NCBI GenBank assembly: GCA_034722435.1
Contig: JAYENX010000040.1
Location: 1-10,928, forward strand
DNA: 10,928 nt
Origin: Nanobdellota archaeon
GTDB taxonomy: Archaea > Nanobdellota > Nanobdellia > Woesearchaeales > JAHWHD01
Direction of reading: 5' to 3'
Shown one piece after another: positions 1 through 10,886 of this stretch (within the stretch, counting starts at the first letter, position 1; every line of letters begins with the position of its first letter). A model generated the notes under the pieces. It was not told the DNA's origin and did no database searches. It worked only from the letters and a program-made list of their open reading frames with translations. The position numbers were made by a program, and so were the translations under genes.

Positions 1-671
1 TCTTCTTTTAAGATTATCCCTAGATGTAGTTTTCTAAGTATAACAAGTTCTGAAACTTTTATTCTAGGTCTTCTAAATGCTTCTTTCAGAAGGTCATGCA
101 TTGCTTTTATTCTATCACTTATTCCTTTAGTGACATATGCTTCAAAGTTATCTAAATCTTCTTTTTTAATAGGAAGGACAAACCCATCTACCCAAAAAAC
201 AATTGAATTTCCTTTTGCATGGAATTCTATTTTGCCATATTCTGTAATGAAAATATATTTGCGATTATTTCGCATCAGTGACATTTGAACGTGATATTTT
301 TTAGTCAGAATATATATTGCATTATCAAAATCGCTCCTTTTATCGATAAATTCACAGATACAATTTATTGAATGGGGTCTGACAAGAAGTGTTTTTTTGA
401 GAAATTCCCACCACCTGAGAAATGCTTTTATCTCATTTATTCTGCATAATTTAACTCTAATCACCTTTGCAACATATAATTGCACATCCTTACACCATCC
501 TAATCTTATAATGTCAGATTTAGCTTTAGAGAGAGTTGTCTTGTTTATTTTCAATTTTTTAACTAATTCTGATTGCAATACTCCTTCTGGTTGTTTAAGA
601 CAAGCATGCAATAATCTAAAGTGATGAATGGAGAAGCGTATAGGCAGGGTTTCTGGAAACAATTCAATCAT
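1..671 (-). CDS. N-terminal winged-HTH protein of unknown function, at least 223 aa, 3' end beyond the window edge (absent from the ORF track)
   Basis: Manual translation from ATG at 671 is open to position 1: MIELFPETLPIRFSIHHFRLLHACLKQPEGVLQSELVKKLKINKTTLSKAKSDIIRLGWCKD...LLVRPHSINCICEF...RKLHLGIILKE. The segment LQSELVKKLKINKTTLSKAKSDIIRLGW fits a MarR/ArsR-like HTH. GGAG lies upstream of the ATG, and the start overlaps the stop of the preceding ORF. Confidence 0.85.
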   Translation of the reverse strand, partial: MIELFPETLPIRFSIHHFRLLHACLKQPEGVLQSELVKKLKINKTTLSKAKSDIIRLGWCKDVQLYVAKVIRVKLCRINEIKAFLRWWEFLKKTLLVRPHSINCICEFIDKRSDFDNAIYILTKKYHVQMSLMRNNRKYIFITEYGKIEFHAKGNSIVFWVDGFVLPIKKEDLDNFEAYVTKGISDRIKAMHDLLKEAFRRPRIKVSELVILRKLHLGIILKE

Positions 672-1961: not shown

Positions 1962-3131
1962 TTAAGATTTGTTTTCCAATGATTCACTAAGTGAATATTT
2001 GTTTAGTATATGATATACTTTAGTAATATTTAAATCATCTTTTGAAGAACAATTATTAAATATTGCATTAACTCCTGAATTCATACCATTAAATTCTGTA
2101 AATATTCCTGCCGATTGCCCATCAAATATTGCATTAACTCCTGAATTCATACCATCAAATTTAGCCATTCCACCCGCAGAATAACCTCTAAATATTGCAT
2201 TAACTCCTGAATTAAGTCCAGTAAACCTAGTCAGTCCACCCGCAGCAGGACCCTCAAATTGAGTATTAACCCCTGAATTAGTTCCAGTAAATTTTGATTG
2301 CAAACCAGCTTCGATATCTCTAAATTGAGCACCAACTCCTGAGTTGGTTCCATTAAATTTTGATTGTGAACCTGCCCTATAACCATTGAATTGAGCATCA
2401 ACACCCGCTTTTTTCCCAATAAATTGTGCTTCATAACCTGATTCTCGTCCTTCAAATTTCGCATTAATTCCTGATCCATTTCCTTCGAATTTAGTACCTA
2501 AACCAGTCCTATGACCTTTGAATTGAACTCCAACACCTGCGTTTTTCCCTATAAATTGAGTTTCATAACCTGCACCAATTCCTTCAAAATTCGCATTAAT
2601 ACCTGCCCCATCTCCTTCAAATTTTATTCTTGAACCTGCAGTTTCACCCAAAAATATAGTATTTAAACCTGAATTATTGCCTTTAAAAATAGCATTAAAA
2701 CCTACAAATTTCCCTTTAAATTTAGCATTAGAACCTGCCTCTTCACCTTCAAATACGGCATTAGAACCTGCCTTTTCACCTTCAAATATAGTATTGGAGC
2801 CTGCGCCAGTTCCTTCAAATAATGCACCATGTCCGGCATGAGTACCCATAAAAGCCTGATCACTATCAATTGTAGTAATAAACGCACCAGCATAATTCCC
2901 TGAAAAATCCTTAACATTATTTCCTTTTGCGTGTAATAAACTTTGTGATAAACCATTAGAAATCTGTCCAGAATCACTTTCCATATTAATATATTGTTTT
3001 AATTCTTCATCCGATATGTCTAATAAATGTGCAGCTTTTTGCAAGAATCTTCTTCCTTTTTCTGAATTTTCATAATAATTATCAACTATATTTTGTAATC
3101 TTTTATCGATATTAATTTTTTCAGTTTTCAT
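1962..3131 (-). CDS. Tandem 11-residue Gly-rich repeat protein, predicted beta-solenoid (389 aa)
   Basis: Long ORF with GAGGTG four nt before the ATG. Residues 96-359 are 24 in-register repeats of G-x-x-[AS]-G-x-x-[ATS]-x-F-x. There is a helical N-terminal region and no signal peptide or TM segment is visible. Confidence 0.9.
   Translation of the reverse strand: MKTEKINIDKRLQNIVDNYYENSEKGRRFLQKAAHLLDISDEELKQYINMESDSGQISNGLSQSLLHAKGNNVKDFSGNYAGAFITTIDSDQAFMGTHAGHGALFEGTGAGSNTIFEGEKAGSNAVFEGEEAGSNAKFKGKFVGFNAIFKGNNSGLNTIFLGETAGSRIKFEGDGAGINANFEGIGAGYETQFIGKNAGVGVQFKGHRTGLGTKFEGNGSGINAKFEGRESGYEAQFIGKKAGVDAQFNGYRAGSQSKFNGTNSGVGAQFRDIEAGLQSKFTGTNSGVNTQFEGPAAGGLTRFTGLNSGVNAIFRGYSAGGMAKFDGMNSGVNAIFDGQSAGIFTEFNGMNSGVNAIFNNCSSKDDLNITKVYHILNKYSLSESLENKS
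2055..2846 (-). repeat. Coding tandem repeat, 24 x 33 bp
   Basis: Repeats run from GTHAGHGALFE to GMNSGVNAIFN. An exact 32-bp duplicate lies at 2058-2089 and 2124-2155, with a third 24-bp copy at 2190-2213 (66-bp period). Confidence 0.95.
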
Positions 3132-3725: not shown

Positions 3726-4103
3726 TTAACTTTTCTTGTAACCAAATTTTTTCTCATAATCTTTATGACTAAGCAAGTCAAGGATTAATGCAATGATTTC
3801 TACTTCGCTTCCTCTGATTGTGTAAATCATTCTCCAAGCACCAGACAGATTTAGTTTCCAGATGTTATTTACATCATACCTATTAATATAGTCTTTTGGA
3901 ATTTTGTTTTTGGCAAGATGGGTTCCAACTTGCGGATTGTCTTTAAGAAAATCTATTTTCGTTCGTATTGAATTGAACAAAATTTGATGATCTGTTCCTG
4001 TTACACCCTTTGCAATTTCTTCCCCAACAAGTTTATTTAACTTTTCAAACTCATCTTTTGCATCTCCTGTAATTTTTACTTTAATTGGTTTACCTTTAAA
4101 CAT
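3726..4103 (-). CDS. RelE/ParE-superfamily toxin-like protein (125 aa)
   Basis: It shows the RelE-fold pattern (I.FLKDNP..G....K...P.......NIWKLNLSGAWRMIYTI....IIALILDLLSHKDYE). It starts 1 nt after the stop of the upstream small DNA-binding gene. Confidence 0.75.
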   Translation of the reverse strand: MFKGKPIKVKITGDAKDEFEKLNKLVGEEIAKGVTGTDHQILFNSIRTKIDFLKDNPQVGTHLAKNKIPKDYINRYDVNNIWKLNLSGAWRMIYTIRGSEVEIIALILDLLSHKDYEKKFGYKKS

Positions 4104-4104
4104 T

Positions 4105-4374
4105 CTATAATTCCACCCCTTCCTGTATAGCTTTATCTAGCTTAGAGCTTGGATTGTATATCCACAAAATACCTTTCCTACCATCAATAATTTTCCCACC
4201 TTCCTCTAAGTACTCCAAAATGACGTTCAATGTTTGATGCATCACTTGTTTTGGTAATTTTGCTTTAAGCTCTTTCCTTGTCAGTAACTTATTTGCTTTT
4301 TTCAACGTTTCCTCTACCATTAACACAGTCTTTAGACTGGGATAATGGATTACCCTCTGGTTTGTCATTTTCAT
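4105..4374 (-). CDS. Winged-HTH protein, probable cognate antitoxin (89 aa)
   Basis: YPSLKTVLMVEETLKK...LTRKELKAKLPKQVMHQTLNVILEYLEEGGKI is wHTH-like. GGTGA precedes the ATG, and the gene is directly upstream of the RelE-like gene. Confidence 0.7.
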   Translation of the reverse strand: MKMTNQRVIHYPSLKTVLMVEETLKKANKLLTRKELKAKLPKQVMHQTLNVILEYLEEGGKIIDGRKGILWIYNPSSKLDKAIQEGVEL

Positions 4375-4761: not shown

Positions 4762-7700
4762 ATGAATCTATACGAAGCTTTAAAGAATAGAGTTAAACAG
4801 AAGATTCCTGAATGGATTAGATTGGCAAATGTTGAAGGGCATGCGCAGATGCCGCGAATGATTGTTGTTGATGATGTTGAAGAAGCAGGCAGGTTAAGAC
4901 GTAGATATCCAGACACTTTAGTTGTTCATTCTCCAAAGATTTATGATGAGCATTCACGTTGGGAAGTGGACGATTCATTTAACTCTTCAAATGACCCTTT
5001 AGAAATAAGATTAAGCAATAACGATAAAATAAAAGGAATTCTAGTCGAACCTGAGTCAATGATGTTAGCCATGTCTAATCTTTACCAAGATTGGATGGAA
5101 CCTCCTAAAGATCTTAATCAAGTTGTAGATTCTTTAGAAAATAGTGTTGAGAAAGCTACTGTAAAACGGCAGAAAGGTATGGATGGTCTTCAAAAAGCTG
5201 CAATGAATCTTTCAGGTAAGAAAGATCCTCAAAAGATAAGGAGTTTGATTAATTGGATTTTGAAACATCAATTTGAGTTTCCTGAACATTTTATTAGAGA
5301 AGCAGTGCAGAATGCTGATGGTGCTTATGAAAATAAAAAAGAAAACCAAATTGATGTGTATATTGATACTGCTAATAGACAGGTAAGGATAGAAGATAAA
5401 GGGATGGCTATGACCTCCAAAACTATAGACGACAAATTCTTTAACATGTTTAAGTCAGAGAATGAACATCTTGATTTTGCAGCAGGTAAGTTTGGAATAG
5501 GGGCTGTAAGTTTCTTCGGGTTGGATCACGAAAGTGTTGAAATTGATAGTCTGACTGAAGCGGGAGAAGGTTCACGAGTTGTTGTAAATAGAAAACTTAT
5601 GAAAGGAGATTATCTTCCAAGTAACAGAACCGAACACGGTACAACTATAACGATAAATCTTGCAGAGCAGTCAGATATAGATTTTAATAAAGTTAAAGAA
5701 ATTCTTGAACAGGATTGTTGCTATATTGAAACTCCATTGTTCTTGCATATGGATGGCAATAGCAGAAGATTGAACAGAGAGTTATTTCCAGATGATGCAA
5801 TGACTTTCCAAGAAAATAATGCTCAAGGTTTTTTACAGAAATATGGTAATGGTGGAGAATTGCACCTTCTCGATCATAGGATTAGATTGAAGACATTACC
5901 AATTAAAGGTGCTAATGGCGTTGTAAACTGTGACGGGTTAAGCACCACGTTCTCTAGAGACAGTATCAAGGACGATGCGGTGTTCAAGAATCTGTGGAGT
6001 TTTATCAATCTAAAAAGAAAAGAACTGTATCAAAATGAAGCTGTTGATTATACAGGATTACCTATAGATGAAAGACTAAAAAGGTATAGTCATTTTGTTC
6101 AGGAGTCATTATTTGTTGAAGATGGAAAAGCTAACGAGGAATGGATACGTGATAATTTCTCAACATTAAAAGAAGGTAAAAGATTTCGTAAAGGTTTAAC
6201 ATGGAAGACCCATACAGACTTTAGCTTTCTTAATAAATGGGGTGCATTACCTGATTATGTGTTTAACACATTAAGAGGTTTAGTCAGTGCGCCATATAAA
6301 ATATTAAAAGCTTATATTGAAGAAGATAGGGATATTAAGATAGGGGGAATGGATATTGACCTTGGTTTTTTAGCAACTCCAAAACCTAAAGAGGAAGATA
6401 TTCAAACTATTGTTGATAATGAGTTAATATTAGAGAATCAGCTTGAGAACATTATTACTTTAAGGAACAGTGAGCGTAAGCATAAAATAAAGAATGCTTT
6501 AGACAGTATTACAAATCCATTACCTAGGTGGTATGAGTCTAAGGCTACTTATTTTCTGAATAATGCAGGATGGATTTTAAACCCCATTATAGGACTTGGA
6601 GGAACTATAGCAGGATTTTTATCCGGATTTCCTAAAGTGGGCATGGGAATAGCTGCCACAACTGTTGCGTACAGTATACCTGCGCTTGCGAGTAATGCTA
6701 AGAATATTGCGAAAGGTATGTACAGTGTGGGATATAATATTGTTCAGGCAGTTAGTCATTGGTTAAAAGAAAAAGTTCTTAATGAAGAGATTTCAAAAAG
6801 GTATAGCGAAGTTGCAGCTGGTTTTAAGAAGCCGAAAGAATCTGTAAAGTCGTATAAGAGAGTTAAGCCGGCAGTTGTTAAGAAATTAAATTTAAAACGT
6901 GCGTCATCAACAAGATCATATCCTGAGACTATGGATTGGAAGCACAGTTTAAGGTCTAGCACACGAGAAGATATCGCGAGCGTAATTAATTCGCACGTAG
7001 ATTTTTTAAAACCTGAATATAGTAAGTCTGAGACTTTTACTAATTTGAACGGTCCTACATGGGAATATGATACTGGAGAATTACAAGTAAGTAAAACTAC
7101 GCCATTACCTGAAGAAATTTCAAAAAAAGTAAATGATAAATCAAGTCTGGAACAAAAATTATGGGAAGTATTTAACCATATTAAAAAGTTTGAGTATGAT
7201 GCTGTTACATCAGAAGATGTTGCGAAACATGGCGGTATTTTAGAGGCGATTATTGGAGAGAAAAAAGCTAAATGCGATCAAGCAAATACGCTTGCAGCAC
7301 ATTATCTAAATCAATTAGGTGTTAAAAATATAAGGTATGCAAAGGGTGAATCGCACGGGGTTCCTCATGCCTGGCTAGAGGTAGAAATGAAAGGAGATTG
7401 GTATGTTGCAGATTATACACCAGACAATATAAATCCAGAACTTGAAGAAATGTTAAATTCTGGAACAATAATTCCATCCTGCGATTCAGGCAAGAACATA
7501 TTTGCAGGGTATAATAATGATAATATGAGTCTATGGAGAAAAATTAAGTTAGGCGCTAAAATGGCATATCATGGTGTGAAGAAACATGGCGTCTTAGGTT
7601 TTGGTGAAAAAGTTTTTAGATTGGATAAAAATATAAATCCAAGAAAGTTAGGTTATTTTGAAACTTTGGCTACATTGCCAATGAGAGTAGTAGGATTTCC

Positions 7701-9570
7701 TTTTGCATTATATAATGGAATAAAAGAGTTTGGTGTGGCTGGTTGTGGAAAGAGGATTCTTAAAGAACGTAAAAGAATTGGGTTAACATCACTAGCTGCT
7801 GTTGTTACTATGATGTTAGCAGGGTCTTATTTTGGAGGGGATACTGGAAATCTAACAGCTATGCCTCTTGATGTTAAGCCGACAAAGATTATTCAAACAG
7901 CGAAGGTTACTAAAAAAGTAAAAGAAAACGTATATAACAATAATAATTCAAGTCACACGATTCATCGTTTGCTACCTAAATCTAGGAGGCAAATAGCAAG
8001 TAATAATGCCACTTTCAATCCAGATGTACCAGCAGGATATTTTGCAGTATCACGGAGCGGATTTCTCTGGCAGAGGGATAGTGACAAAGCAGCATGGTCA
8101 GTTTACAAAAAAATTCCCATACCTGAAAATATGCACATAAGTGGACAAATATCTAAAAAATTAAATTTACCCGTATCAAAAGCTGAAACATTAGAAGGGA
8201 AAATTTCGGCATTGACGAAGCATTTCAATGAGTATGAATATGATGTAGTTACATCTGAAGATGTAAAGAAGTATGGTGGTGTTTTAGCGGTTGTTGAGAA
8301 AGAGAAAAAAGGTACTTGTGCAGAGGTAAATACGTTAGCCGCAGTATATGCTCACAAGATGGGAATTAGAAAAATAAGATATGTTAATGGTTTTTTAAAT
8401 GGTGTTGGACATGCTTGGCTTGAGTTTGAACGTGTTGGAAAATGGCACTTGGTTGATTTTACACCAAAAAAGATAAATCCTGAACTTGCAAAGATTATGC
8501 CTAAGCAACCAAGTACGCATATTATGGATCTTGATAATTTTTCTTATAATATGATGCTAAAAGATGAAAATGCATTTGTATATATAAAAATAAAAGAAGG
8601 GGATACAAGATGGAAATTTGCAACCGAAATTAAGAAATGGACAGGTGTTAAAAGAAAAAATATTTTAGATCGAATTCCTTTATCAAAAAAAGGGTATCTT
8701 CGTCAAGGAATTTATGAAGTTGGCAAGCTATTGTCTTCTGATACTAATCAATCACCTCCGTTTATTATTGAAAATGGCGAGCTATGTAAAATAGAGACAT
8801 ACCCCTTAAGACATCGTCTTAATGATAAATTCCAATTTTGTGGGAAGACATGGAGTGATTATTGCCTGAGACCTTTAAGTGATGCTTTAGAAGGATTGGA
8901 AGTAAAGAAAGGTAAAGTTTTTACGGATATTAAAAAAGGAGATACGCGATTTAAACTTGCAAATAAATTGAAAAGGGTTGCAGGTTCAAATTCAACATGG
9001 CAAGATATTGCAGAAAGAATTGAGTTAATACGAGGAGATTTTGCAACAGGTAAATATGAAGTTGGAAAGTATGTTAATGATAGAGTTGTAATTGGAGATA
9101 AGATTAAAAGATATGTCGAACCTGTTAAGGTAGTAGAGAATGTTAAACCAATCGAATCGGAAAGATTGCCTAAGAAAGATGTTGTTAAATTAATGGTAGT
9201 GCCAGAAAAATTAAACTTGCCAGTACAATCAGAATCAGAACTTGTTGTTCCTTATCAGGATAATACTCATTTGTACTTATTAGGTATGGGTCTTCTATGT
9301 GGAGCTGTATACCTCGGAACCAGAAAAAGTGAAAGATTAGATGAACTTAATAGAGATCAAAGGGTTACGCTTTATTCTTTAGCAGAAGCTTTACCAGAGG
9401 TTGATGTTTATTACACGCCTCACGTTTCAAGTGCTTTTGATTTATCTAAGAACAGGGTTAGATTGAATCCTAAGGCAAGTATAATCCCAGAGATTGCAGC
9501 TTTAGGGTATGCCACATTTATGAGAGATGAAGAATTAGCTAAAACAGTGATTAAGAGGTATGGAAAATGA
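4762..9570 (+). CDS. Multidomain membrane protein: Hsp90-like GHKL ATPase + 2 transglutaminase-like (Cys-His-Asp) domains + 2 LysM-like repeats (1602 aa)
   Basis: GHKL boxes: FIRE180AVQN184AD, IED212KGMAM, G242KFGIG, G293TTITI. Hydrophobic segments at aa 604-643, 1006-1024 and 1504-1519. Triads: C838/H869(HAW)/D884(DYTP) and C1186/H1217(HAW)/D1232(DFTP). Confidence 0.9.
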   Translation: MNLYEALKNRVKQKIPEWIRLANVEGHAQMPRMIVVDDVEEAGRLRRRYPDTLVVHSPKIYDEHSRWEVDDSFNSSNDPLEIRLSNNDKIKGILVEPESMMLAMSNLYQDWMEPPKDLNQVVDSLENSVEKATVKRQKGMDGLQKAAMNLSGKKDPQKIRSLINWILKHQFEFPEHFIREAVQNADGAYENKKENQIDVYIDTANRQVRIEDKGMAMTSKTIDDKFFNMFKSENEHLDFAAGKFGIGAVSFFGLDHESVEIDSLTEAGEGSRVVVNRKLMKGDYLPSNRTEHGTTITINLAEQSDIDFNKVKEILEQDCCYIETPLFLHMDGNSRRLNRELFPDDAMTFQENNAQGFLQKYGNGGELHLLDHRIRLKTLPIKGANGVVNCDGLSTTFSRDSIKDDAVFKNLWSFINLKRKELYQNEAVDYTGLPIDERLKRYSHFVQESLFVEDGKANEEWIRDNFSTLKEGKRFRKGLTWKTHTDFSFLNKWGALPDYVFNTLRGLVSAPYKILKAYIEEDRDIKIGGMDIDLGFLATPKPKEEDIQTIVDNELILENQLENIITLRNSERKHKIKNALDSITNPLPRWYESKATYFLNNAGWILNPIIGLGGTIAGFLSGFPKVGMGIAATTVAYSIPALASNAKNIAKGMYSVGYNIVQAVSHWLKEKVLNEEISKRYSEVAAGFKKPKESVKSYKRVKPAVVKKLNLKRASSTRSYPETMDWKHSLRSSTREDIASVINSHVDFLKPEYSKSETFTNLNGPTWEYDTGELQVSKTTPLPEEISKKVNDKSSLEQKLWEVFNHIKKFEYDAVTSEDVAKHGGILEAIIGEKKAKCDQANTLAAHYLNQLGVKNIRYAKGESHGVPHAWLEVEMKGDWYVADYTPDNINPELEEMLNSGTIIPSCDSGKNIFAGYNNDNMSLWRKIKLGAKMAYHGVKKHGVLGFGEKVFRLDKNINPRKLGYFETLATLPMRVVGFPFALYNGIKEFGVAGCGKRILKERKRIGLTSLAAVVTMMLAGSYFGGDTGNLTAMPLDVKPTKIIQTAKVTKKVKENVYNNNNSSHTIHRLLPKSRRQIASNNATFNPDVPAGYFAVSRSGFLWQRDSDKAAWSVYKKIPIPENMHISGQISKKLNLPVSKAETLEGKISALTKHFNEYEYDVVTSEDVKKYGGVLAVVEKEKKGTCAEVNTLAAVYAHKMGIRKIRYVNGFLNGVGHAWLEFERVGKWHLVDFTPKKINPELAKIMPKQPSTHIMDLDNFSYNMMLKDENAFVYIKIKEGDTRWKFATEIKKWTGVKRKNILDRIPLSKKGYLRQGIYEVGKLLSSDTNQSPPFIIENGELCKIETYPLRHRLNDKFQFCGKTWSDYCLRPLSDALEGLEVKKGKVFTDIKKGDTRFKLANKLKRVAGSNSTWQDIAERIELIRGDFATGKYEVGKYVNDRVVIGDKIKRYVEPVKVVENVKPIESERLPKKDVVKLMVVPEKLNLPVQSESELVVPYQDNTHLYLLGMGLLCGAVYLGTRKSERLDELNRDQRVTLYSLAEALPEVDVYYTPHVSSAFDLSKNRVRLNPKASIIPEIAALGYATFMRDEELAKTVIKRYGK
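7153..8499 (+). repeat. Intragenic duplication of the transglutaminase-like domain (about 7153-7455 and 8197-8499)
   Basis: FEYDAVTSEDVAKHGGILEAIIGEKKAKCDQANTLAA aligns with YEYDVVTSEDVKKYGGVLAVVEKEKKGTCAEVNTLAA, and DYTPDNINPEL with DFTPKKINPEL. The catalytic Cys residues are 348 aa apart. Confidence 0.9.
8581..9069 (+). repeat. Two LysM-like about 50-aa repeats (8581-8727 and 8920-9069)
   Basis: YIKIKEGDTRWKFATEIKK...GIYEVGK aligns with FTDIKKGDTRFKLANKLKR...GKYEVGK. Both resemble the LysM Y.VK.GDTLW.IA start. The duplication is clear; the LysM label is tentative. Confidence 0.6.
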
Positions 9571-10886
9571 AACTTGCTTTTGATGTATCGATAGAAGATA
9601 TGGTAAGGAAGAAAGCAGACAGGTATCATAATCCTATAGATTACCTTGATGATTTAATTATTGGAAAAATGTATAGACCCAGAAGAAAGATTGATGTAGA
9701 TGTATATCCCAGTGTGATCAGTGTAAAATCTGAAGGTCCTTCAGACGAATCGTTTATTGGTGAGATACAAGACGGAGATATATTTGCGAAAGCAGAAGTG
9801 CTTCCGCCAATTGCAGAGTATGAAACAGTAATAGCACATACCGGCAACAAAATTCTTATAGTACATGGAAATAGAACTATTGAGGTAGCAGATTTGGAAT
9901 CTGAAAATTCATCTGTAGAAATATTTAGAGAAAGAAACGGTAATGATGAAGCTAAAAGGTTAAAAGAGTTGTATAGTAATTCTGATCTTGATGTTAGGAT
10001 AAATGGTCAAACATTAGAAAAAGCTGTAGGGTTTGAGTTTGATAAAGATGGTGTTAGAGGAGTTATTGCATATGATAAAAGATCGAGAGGTAATGTGCAT
10101 TATTTTAATAATGGAAGATTTGTTGATAAATTAAGTTCAGACATGGGTGGCGTGGATATTTTCCTGCACCAACATGGATTAGCCCCTAACGTTGCAAAGA
10201 CTAAAGTGTTGACAAAAGGAGAGTTTAGGCAAGAGAACGAAAGAATAAATCAAGCGCTTTCCGACGTGTTTGTTGATTATGTTAAACAGTTTAATGGTAG
10301 CGTACAGTCTTATCAAACATTGATGAGGAATGTTCATAATAAATATCCAAGCGCGAGTCTTAATTCTGTGATAAAAGATAAAATTTTGTTTGCAGATCGA
10401 AATGGTGAGTTTAGAAAAGATTATACTCTTGATTATGTGACTGAGCATATTGGAGTTAGACTTTCAGAGAGTGATGATGGTTTATATCAAAGTGTTATGG
10501 GAGAATCAAGGCAAAGTAGACATAAGAAATTAATGGAAGAATTAAGAAGGAAACAGAGAGAGGAAATGTTGAAGAAGAAAAGAGAGATGAAGAAAAAAGA
10601 GATAAAGAGAAGTCAAGTTAAAAGCAGGGTTGTTGAACACGATTATAATCCTTTGCTTCAAGAGGTTGGTACAATATTGAATATTGAAGTTAATGAAGGG
10701 GAAGCGTATAGTTTTAGTGATGGTACTTTGAAAGTTCCAAGAAAAGCATTAGACAATGATGCTCTTAAAATCGCAATGGATGCTGTTCCGCATATTGGAA
10801 GAGATGAAAGTTCTAGATTAGAACTCTATAGTAAAATAGTAAAGTATTCTTCAGGTGTTAATCCAGAGAAAGGTTTTTTCGGGTAA
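9567..10886 (+). CDS. Degenerate Hsp90/GHKL-like paralog lacking ATP-binding motifs, with a charged helix (439 aa)
   Basis: It has an ATGA overlap with the upstream stop. The N-terminus (AFDVSIEDMVRKKADRYHNPIDYLDDLIIG) parallels the upstream KDPQKIRSLINWILKHQFEFPEHFIREAVQN. The middle region (VRINGQ...GVRGVI...VHYFNNGRFV...LAPNVAKTKV) parallels the upstream transducer region. There is an E/K/R-rich helix at aa 318-352. Confidence 0.75.
   Translation: MKLAFDVSIEDMVRKKADRYHNPIDYLDDLIIGKMYRPRRKIDVDVYPSVISVKSEGPSDESFIGEIQDGDIFAKAEVLPPIAEYETVIAHTGNKILIVHGNRTIEVADLESENSSVEIFRERNGNDEAKRLKELYSNSDLDVRINGQTLEKAVGFEFDKDGVRGVIAYDKRSRGNVHYFNNGRFVDKLSSDMGGVDIFLHQHGLAPNVAKTKVLTKGEFRQENERINQALSDVFVDYVKQFNGSVQSYQTLMRNVHNKYPSASLNSVIKDKILFADRNGEFRKDYTLDYVTEHIGVRLSESDDGLYQSVMGESRQSRHKKLMEELRRKQREEMLKKKREMKKKEIKRSQVKSRVVEHDYNPLLQEVGTILNIEVNEGEAYSFSDGTLKVPRKALDNDALKIAMDAVPHIGRDESSRLELYSKIVKYSSGVNPEKGFFG

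Follow-up and report, generated by a model that had tools for sequence, protein, structure and literature searches.

Two described systems are among those closest to the protein analysed here. TgpA of Pseudomonas aeruginosa (PDB 6g49) sits in the inner membrane and exposes a transglutaminase-like domain (TGase, a domain with a Cys-His-Asp triad), flanked by membrane segments, in the periplasm. In the LapG/LapD system a periplasmic TGase-like cysteine protease (LapG; PDB 4fgp, 4u65) is controlled from the cytoplasm. We analysed a stretch of 10,928 nucleotides (nt), called the window, which is the entire 10.9-kb contig JAYENX010000040.1 of a Woesearchaeales genome (1.30 Mb, 94.5% complete). Its gene A encodes a membrane protein combining a GHKL ATPase, two TGase units (copy 1 and copy 2, numbered along the gene), LysM-like repeats and a C-terminal tail (C-tail). 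TgpA, unlike gene A, is bacterial and has no GHKL ATPase, duplicated TGase, LysM-like repeats or paired B gene; sequence comparison relates the two no further than the superfamily. The LapG/LapD system divides protease and transmembrane regulator between two proteins and uses cyclic di-GMP as its signal, whereas gene A has a fused GHKL ATPase. The closest relatives of gene A were found in metagenome-assembled genomes of Woesearchaeota, and the 16S rRNA gene of the genome scored higher as archaeal (1395 bits) than as bacterial (1057 bits).

Copies 1 and 2 of gene A are intact TGase-like domains derived from a recent internal duplication, as several comparisons confirmed. Pfam PF01841 (Transglut_core) matched the protein in two stretches with 52.3 bits (cut-off 23). 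A family hidden Markov model recognized domains at amino acids (aa) 734–900 (178.5 bits, E-value 2e-55) and 1074–1251 (156.8 bits, E-value 1e-48). By BLASTP, aa 768–906 and 1107–1256 were 44% identical (E-value 3e-40), and a wider self-comparison gave 39% identity over 183 columns between aa 728–898 and 1068–1246 (E-value 3e-34). The original prediction, made from the letters of the window, had described two copies with intact, equally spaced triads at 7153–8499, with a likeness reaching upstream of the triads. Both triads were found (residues in Table 1), each with 31 residues from Cys to His and 15 from His to Asp. The domains are real, and the repeat runs even further upstream than had been stated: its first unit begins about 210 nt before the proposed start.

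Of 27 family TGase domains aligned to copy 1, 26 had the triad, as did copy 1 itself. The sole exception was copy 2 of the ortholog, in which Ser replaces the catalytic Cys. Both triads of the gene A protein stand in register with C/H/D positions that are invariant in 25 relatives. This ortholog, 51% identical overall to the gene A protein, comes from an unpublished genome of the same genus, whose assembly lacks the gene stretch equivalent to aa 556–975. Three statements depend on this genome: that copy 2 has Ser for Cys, that aa 968–1026 are conserved and hydrophobic (see below), and that the duplication is older than the separation of the two species. Loss of one triad in most homologs had been named as a finding that would speak against the original prediction; it was partly observed, Ser standing in for Cys in the one ortholog known for copy 2. 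The AlphaFold2 (AF2) model of copy 1 (aa 729–899) had a predicted local distance difference test (pLDDT) score above 90. Searched with Foldseek, it resembled TglA (E-value 9e-4), the TGase 4xz7, LapG, TgpA and CPR-C4, with probabilities of 0.9–1.0; LapG was among the best matches (probability 1.0, TM-target 0.42–0.44). A complex prediction of TGase 1 (aa 725–905) with TGase 2 (aa 1065–1255) scored 0.02 and gave no verdict.

The original prediction had proposed an intragenic duplication and a phylogeny of the copies. In a maximum-likelihood tree of TGase domains, copy 1 and copy 2 of the window and copy 2 of the ortholog formed one clade (support 97/95), within which the two copies 2 were sisters (100/99). 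Because both copies fall in this one clade, the duplication is lineage-specific, and it is older than the split between the species of the window and that of the ortholog. Path lengths in the tree were 0.51 for copy 1 and 1.02 for copy 2, the latter having evolved about twice as fast. Almost all family matches scored best against copy 1 and not copy 2. The net charge of copy 1 (-10) was inside the acidic range of the family, and copy 2 was basic (+10). An independent duplication was found in the relative P0032 (1469 aa), with two TGase-family domains (E-values 9e-40 and 1.5e-17) and Pro/Thr-rich linkers. The second of these is degenerate, without the Cys and truncated in its His/Asp part.

The N-terminal part of the gene A protein resembles the GHKL ATPases of Hsp90/HtpG, MORC and sacsin in its N-box, G1 and G2-like motifs and in weak profile matches. 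It differs from them in scoring under the curated cut-offs and in sharing one polypeptide with membrane segments and a TGase. HATPase_c (PF02518) matched aa 175–300 with 16.8 bits (cut-off 26.4), and the NCBIfam matches to HtpG, HSP90 and sacsin were weak and far under their cut-offs. The motifs REAxQN, DxGxGM and GKFGIGA are family-invariant, and the Bergerat-fold positions E180/N184 (REAVQN), D212–G214 (EDKGMAM) and G242–G247 (GKFGIG) were invariant in eight family members. Among the relatives, P0005 stood just at the cut-offs of PF02518 (26.4 vs 26.4) and PF13589 (25.1 vs 25.0), P0007 cleared that of PF13589 (29.7 vs 25.0) and P0008 reached it (25.0 vs 25.0); the other relatives scanned for these two families were just under. 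An architecture of ATPase, membrane segments and TGase has no named counterpart in Pfam, NCBIfam or PADLOC, and gene A itself had no match in PADLOC.

A homolog of gene B stood directly 3' of gene A in all seven further loci (L009, L011, L012, L013, L014, L015 and L018), and was the only gene of the window conserved beside gene A there. The module is rare. Among 1.84 billion protein representatives, no more than 28 matched the C-terminal 1023 aa of gene A (E-value up to 1e-3), and of the 301 genomes searched in the same order only 5 had a match. Metagenome scans with the hairpin motif and the copy-2 motif recovered no further relatives, and a search for shorter proteins covering aa 560–1030 found none. 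An IMG/VR scan gave a single match, an unrelated GHKL protein, and thus no evidence for a viral origin. We found no literature on a module of ATPase, TGase and partner, which is unnamed in Pfam, NCBIfam and PADLOC.

The relatives (P0003–P0012 and P0016–P0032; loci L009 and L011–L013) share with the gene A module the ATPase, the C-tail, the downstream B gene and a triad-bearing TGase. They carry one TGase, in A or in B, whereas gene A carries two. Two layouts were recognized: (i) in “B-type” members (P0010/P0011 and about 14 others), A has about 800 aa and no TGase, and B has about 710–780 aa, with the TGase between exactly two hydrophobic segments; (ii) in “A-type” members (P0003–P0009 and P0012/P0013), the single TGase precedes the last membrane segment of A, which has about 960–1420 aa, and B has about 420 aa. 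In 23 relatives with the TGase between hydrophobic segments, the 15-aa flanks of the upstream segment had on average 3.7 Lys and Arg (K/R) before and 1.1 after it, and those of the downstream segment 1.2 before and 4.2 after. The N-terminal domains of 14 B-type proteins had no signal peptide. This absence, together with the flank charges, places the TGase of the family outside the cell. The N-terminal domain of gene B was also compared with the ATPase of gene A: a suggestive match to the motif T-x-[ST]-[KR]-[SD]-R-V was all that was seen, and a dead paralog of the ATPase was unsupported in this comparison (hhalign E-value 0.53).

Five segments of the gene A protein are hydrophobic on the Kyte-Doolittle (KD), Goldman-Engelman-Steitz (GES, trapezoid), Wimley-White (WW) octanol and crude Hessa scales (Table 1). 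A TopPred-style scan called four of them “certain” (604–624, 626–646, 1006–1026 and 1501–1521). The motif KRILKERKR before 1006–1024 and the TRK after the last segment, both noted in the original prediction, are as described. The flanks of 1006–1024 hold six K/R before and one after, and those of 1502–1520 none before and four after. A single membrane segment had been claimed between the two copies; 1006–1024 is present, and the hydrophobic stretch 968–987 had been overlooked. Such a hydrophobic pair between two TGases occurs only in the gene A protein and its ortholog, the two copies of P0032 having none between them. At 16 residues matching 968–987 the ortholog reads LLLAPVALPFVLYNGI, which lacks Arg; its mean GES is 1.52, and that of the window residues 0.63. 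Within the C-terminal half, aa 976–1026 are the best conserved, with about 65% identity to the ortholog; the C-tail is about 75% identical. The segment 1502–1520 corresponds to the post-TGase segment of the relatives, which stands just before the homologous C-tail, by position and charged flanks and without significant sequence similarity.

Table 1 Features of the gene A/gene B module in the window and hydrophobicity of candidate membrane segments (KD, 19-aa peak; GES; WW-octanol sum; crude Hessa sum).
Feature	Position	Strand	Residues (aa)	Description	KD	GES	WW-octanol	Hessa
Gene A	4762..9570	+	1602 in total	Membrane protein; from open reading frame and translation, Pfam, homologs				
Hsp90/MORC-like GHKL ATPase region	5209..6171	+	about 150–470	Cytoplasmic; no N-terminal hydrophobic segment				
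Gly-rich double hydrophobic hump	6571..6699	+	604–624 and 626–646	Joined by Pro-Lys; hairpin (two crossings) or single crossing				
First hump			604–624		1.48	1.65	-3.7	
Second hump			626–646		1.34	1.39	+0.6	7.5
TGase unit 1 (copy 1)	6943..7458	+	728–899	Triad C838/H869/D884; slower-evolving, family-typical charge				
Hydrophobic segment TLATLPMRVVGFPFALYNGI	7663..7722	+	968–987	Directly before KR cluster; candidate membrane segment or relic	1.13	0.72 (“putative”)	-4.1	9.5
Conserved basic loop KEFGVAGCGKRILKERKR	7723..7776	+	988–1005	Cytoplasmic in every model; 7 K/R in 18 aa				
Hydrophobic segment	7777..7833	+	1006–1024	Most hydrophobic; predicted in-to-out; preceded by KRILKERKR	1.64	1.91	-4.3	
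TGase unit 2 (copy 2)	7963..8511	+	1068–1250	Triad C1186/H1217/D1232; faster-evolving, net charge +10				
Two LysM-like repeats	8578..9078	+	1273–1325 and 1386–1439	40% identity, E-value 2.6e-8				
Last membrane segment	9265..9321	+	1502–1520	Predicted out-to-in; followed by TRK	1.28	1.46	-4.4	
C-tail	9322..9567	+	1521–1602	Family-conserved, cytoplasmic; BLASTP to P0003 C-terminus, invariant columns				
Gene B	9567..10886	+	439 in total	Overlaps gene A by 4 nt; partner directly downstream				

Judged from sequence, the odds of a cytoplasmic copy 1 are roughly one in two, and the two copies may face the same side or opposite sides. The ATPase must be inside, and homology and charge place the C-tail there as well, so that the chain has to cross an even number of times. 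This parity admits four (or six) crossings among five comparably hydrophobic segments, and the choice lies between 626–646 and 968–987. A six-crossing variant, with aa 652–668 as a very weak extra segment, is conceivable and has low prior weight. Copy 2 is outside in every reasonable model, because 1006–1024 and 1502–1520 look like the pre- and post-TGase segments of the family. The location of copy 2 and the LysM-like repeats outside the cell is thus a well-supported prediction; the original one, which had placed them there, is most likely right, one segment being K/R-preceded and the other K/R-followed as in the 23 relatives.

With a probability just short of one half, we favour a layout in which both copies face outside. 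From an internal ATPase, the chain would cross once (or three times) within aa 604–668 to reach an external TGase 1, and 968–987 would cross back in. The loop KEFGVAGCGKRILKERKR would then be inside, and 1006–1024 would cross out to TGase 2 and the two LysM-like repeats, before 1502–1520 returns to a cytoplasmic tail. For this we infer that 968–987 spans the membrane and that 604–646 crosses an odd number of times; if 968–987 crosses, both TGase domains are therefore outside. Every other TGase of the family with a readable topology is outside, and in P0032 both copies lie between the same upstream and downstream membrane segments. The WW-octanol sum of 968–987 equals those of 1006–1024 and 1502–1520, and the high hydrophobicity of this segment in the ortholog and the conservation of aa 976–1026 also favour a crossing there. 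The spacing also agrees: from the His of copy 1 to 968–987 there are 98 aa (81–96 aa to the second membrane segment in B-type relatives), and from 1006–1026 to the His of copy 2 there are 191 aa (about 150–210 in relatives). The low GES of 968–987 does not exclude that it spans, because P0010 and P0003 need segments of 0.73 and 0.82 to span for parity. A tandem duplication of a two-segment cassette would, in one step, leave ATPase and tail in place. Also in favour of this layout, copy 1 is the conservative one, with its shorter tree path and typical charge, beside a copy 2 that lost its Cys in the ortholog.

Several observations weigh against an external copy 1, and many of them support the opposite-sides topology of the original prediction, to which we assign a somewhat lower probability, still not far below one half. 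There, 604–624 and 626–646 would form a tight hairpin, TGase 1 and 968–987 would be cytoplasmic, and 1006–1024 would lead out to TGase 2 and the LysM-like repeats, with 1502–1520 returning. The default of the TopPred-style scan reproduces this topology, its four “certain” segments giving the correct parity. GES, KD and the crude Hessa sum all rank 626–646 above 968–987, and no known non-membrane segment of the family set exceeds a GES of 1.10, so that hump 2 scores above all of them. Tight two-segment hairpins just after the ATPase recur in the A-type P0003, P0007 and P0010, and MAFFT aligned hump 2 with the second hairpin segment of A-type relatives. The third segment of the relatives has no hydrophobic counterpart before TGase 1, and aa 647–727 hold no hydrophobic segment. 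The stretch 968–987 contains Arg975 and two Pro, and its would-be outside flank (952–966) has four K/R, an atypical number on that side that only 2 of the 23 relatives reach; the flank before 604 has only two K/R, the family minimum. N-x-S/T sequons numbered 1 in aa 647–966 and 7 in 1027–1500, a difference that is not significant, and as a compartment marker we rejected them, the counts being too small. Net charge was also rejected as a marker, the outside TGases of the family being acidic like copy 1. None of the hmmsearch profile tests of 604–646, 968–1005 and 1006–1026 against the relatives' membrane segments was significant (best E-value 0.14, for the K-rich stretch plus TM3 vs 996–1016); homology of the cassettes is therefore not demonstrated. 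In the AF2 model of aa 590–1060 only the TGase core was folded, with pLDDT below 50 in all membrane regions, and the hydrophobicity values are provisional.

On opposite sides, 968–987 would be what is left of the ancestral post-TGase segment, a relic that flanking basic residues at either end prevent from inserting, and the likely origin would be a tandem duplication of the external cassette followed by loss of the membrane segment preceding copy 1. This would need at least two evolutionary steps, and a TM-grade stretch (LLLAPVALPFVLY in the ortholog) would stay in the cytoplasm. The relocated copy would be the slower-evolving, family-typical one, whereas the copy left in place would be divergent, with its Cys lost in the ortholog. 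Given the overlooked 968–987, the outside location of all other readable family TGases and P0032, the claim of a cytoplasmic copy 1 is not established. Neither topology would apply if some Gly-rich stretches were interfacial or re-entrant, or if the topology were dual or mixed; the side on which copy 1 lies would then be heterogeneous or unlike that in either topology. We regard this as improbable. It is suggested by the weak hydrophobicity of all five segments (KD 1.13–1.64), which are Gly/Pro-rich, by the AF2 model predicting no helix at 604–646, and by parity conflicts in P0009 and P0012 when “certain” segments only are counted; the clean positive-inside pattern across the family and the strongly polarised flanks of 1006–1024 and 1502–1520 argue against it.

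Gene A belongs, as the A component, to a two-gene module that is rare and archaeal, with B as a soluble or membrane partner. The A protein of the family consists of a cytoplasmic Hsp90-like ATPase, membrane segments, an external TGase, a final segment with a K/R stop and a cytoplasmic tail. In the favoured layout with both copies outside, a unit running from a membrane segment through a basic linker, the TGase and a spacer to a second membrane segment and K/R would have been duplicated in tandem in the lineage of gene A. Copy 1 would keep the ancestral catalysis, most likely that of a LapG/TgpA-like cysteine protease or a transamidase acting on surface proteins or glycans, an enzymatic role that we infer. 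Copy 2, joined to glycan-binding-like repeats, would drift towards a binding or regulatory role. Most likely, an Hsp90-like module anchored in the membrane and driven by ATP would present a TGase-fold cysteine protease or transamidase on the outside and might also control it; this mechanism is suggested by the fold neighbours LapG and TgpA and by the architecture. LapG/LapD may serve, as a lead only, as an analogy for nucleotide-dependent control of the TGase of gene A.

The module occurs in only a few genomes, all of DPANN-type archaea. Episymbiotic archaea could plausibly use a surface protease or transamidase that is driven by ATP and bears glycan-binding-like repeats to remodel their own envelope or that of a host. 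The gene A protein is a compact natural test case, either for the duplication of an in-out-in cassette or for a lost membrane segment reshaping topology. If the copies do lie on opposite sides, one polypeptide would carry the same Cys-His-Asp enzyme on both membrane faces, a natural topology flip that relocated a catalytic domain to a new compartment.

The label “LysM-like” for the two repeats behind copy 2 is plausible but unproven. AF2 modelled each as beta-alpha-alpha-beta (pLDDT about 60 and 70–84). In Foldseek, LysM proteins topped the list with non-significant E-values, all above 0.8, and Pfam LysM (PF01476) had no match in the gene A protein at an E-value up to 1.

Elsewhere in the window, a ParE-like toxin open reading frame (ORF; weak Pfam match, 18.6 bits), with a small winged-helix ORF immediately upstream, was found at 3726–4374 on the minus strand, and a small ORF resembling MazE/AbrB at 785–1009, also on the minus strand. 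The ParE-like and MazE/AbrB-like ORFs, together with several winged helix-turn-helix proteins and the lack of other genes shared with the relatives, suggest that the contig is a mobile or accessory island. A 389-aa protein at 1962–3131 (minus strand) consisted nearly entirely of repeats of about 11 residues with a Gly/Ala/Phe pattern (G.NA.F.G...) and had no Pfam match. The match of the 16S rRNA gene (G000:C56:47758-49363, L006) spanned 1606 bases against a 1478-position model, suggesting an insertion.

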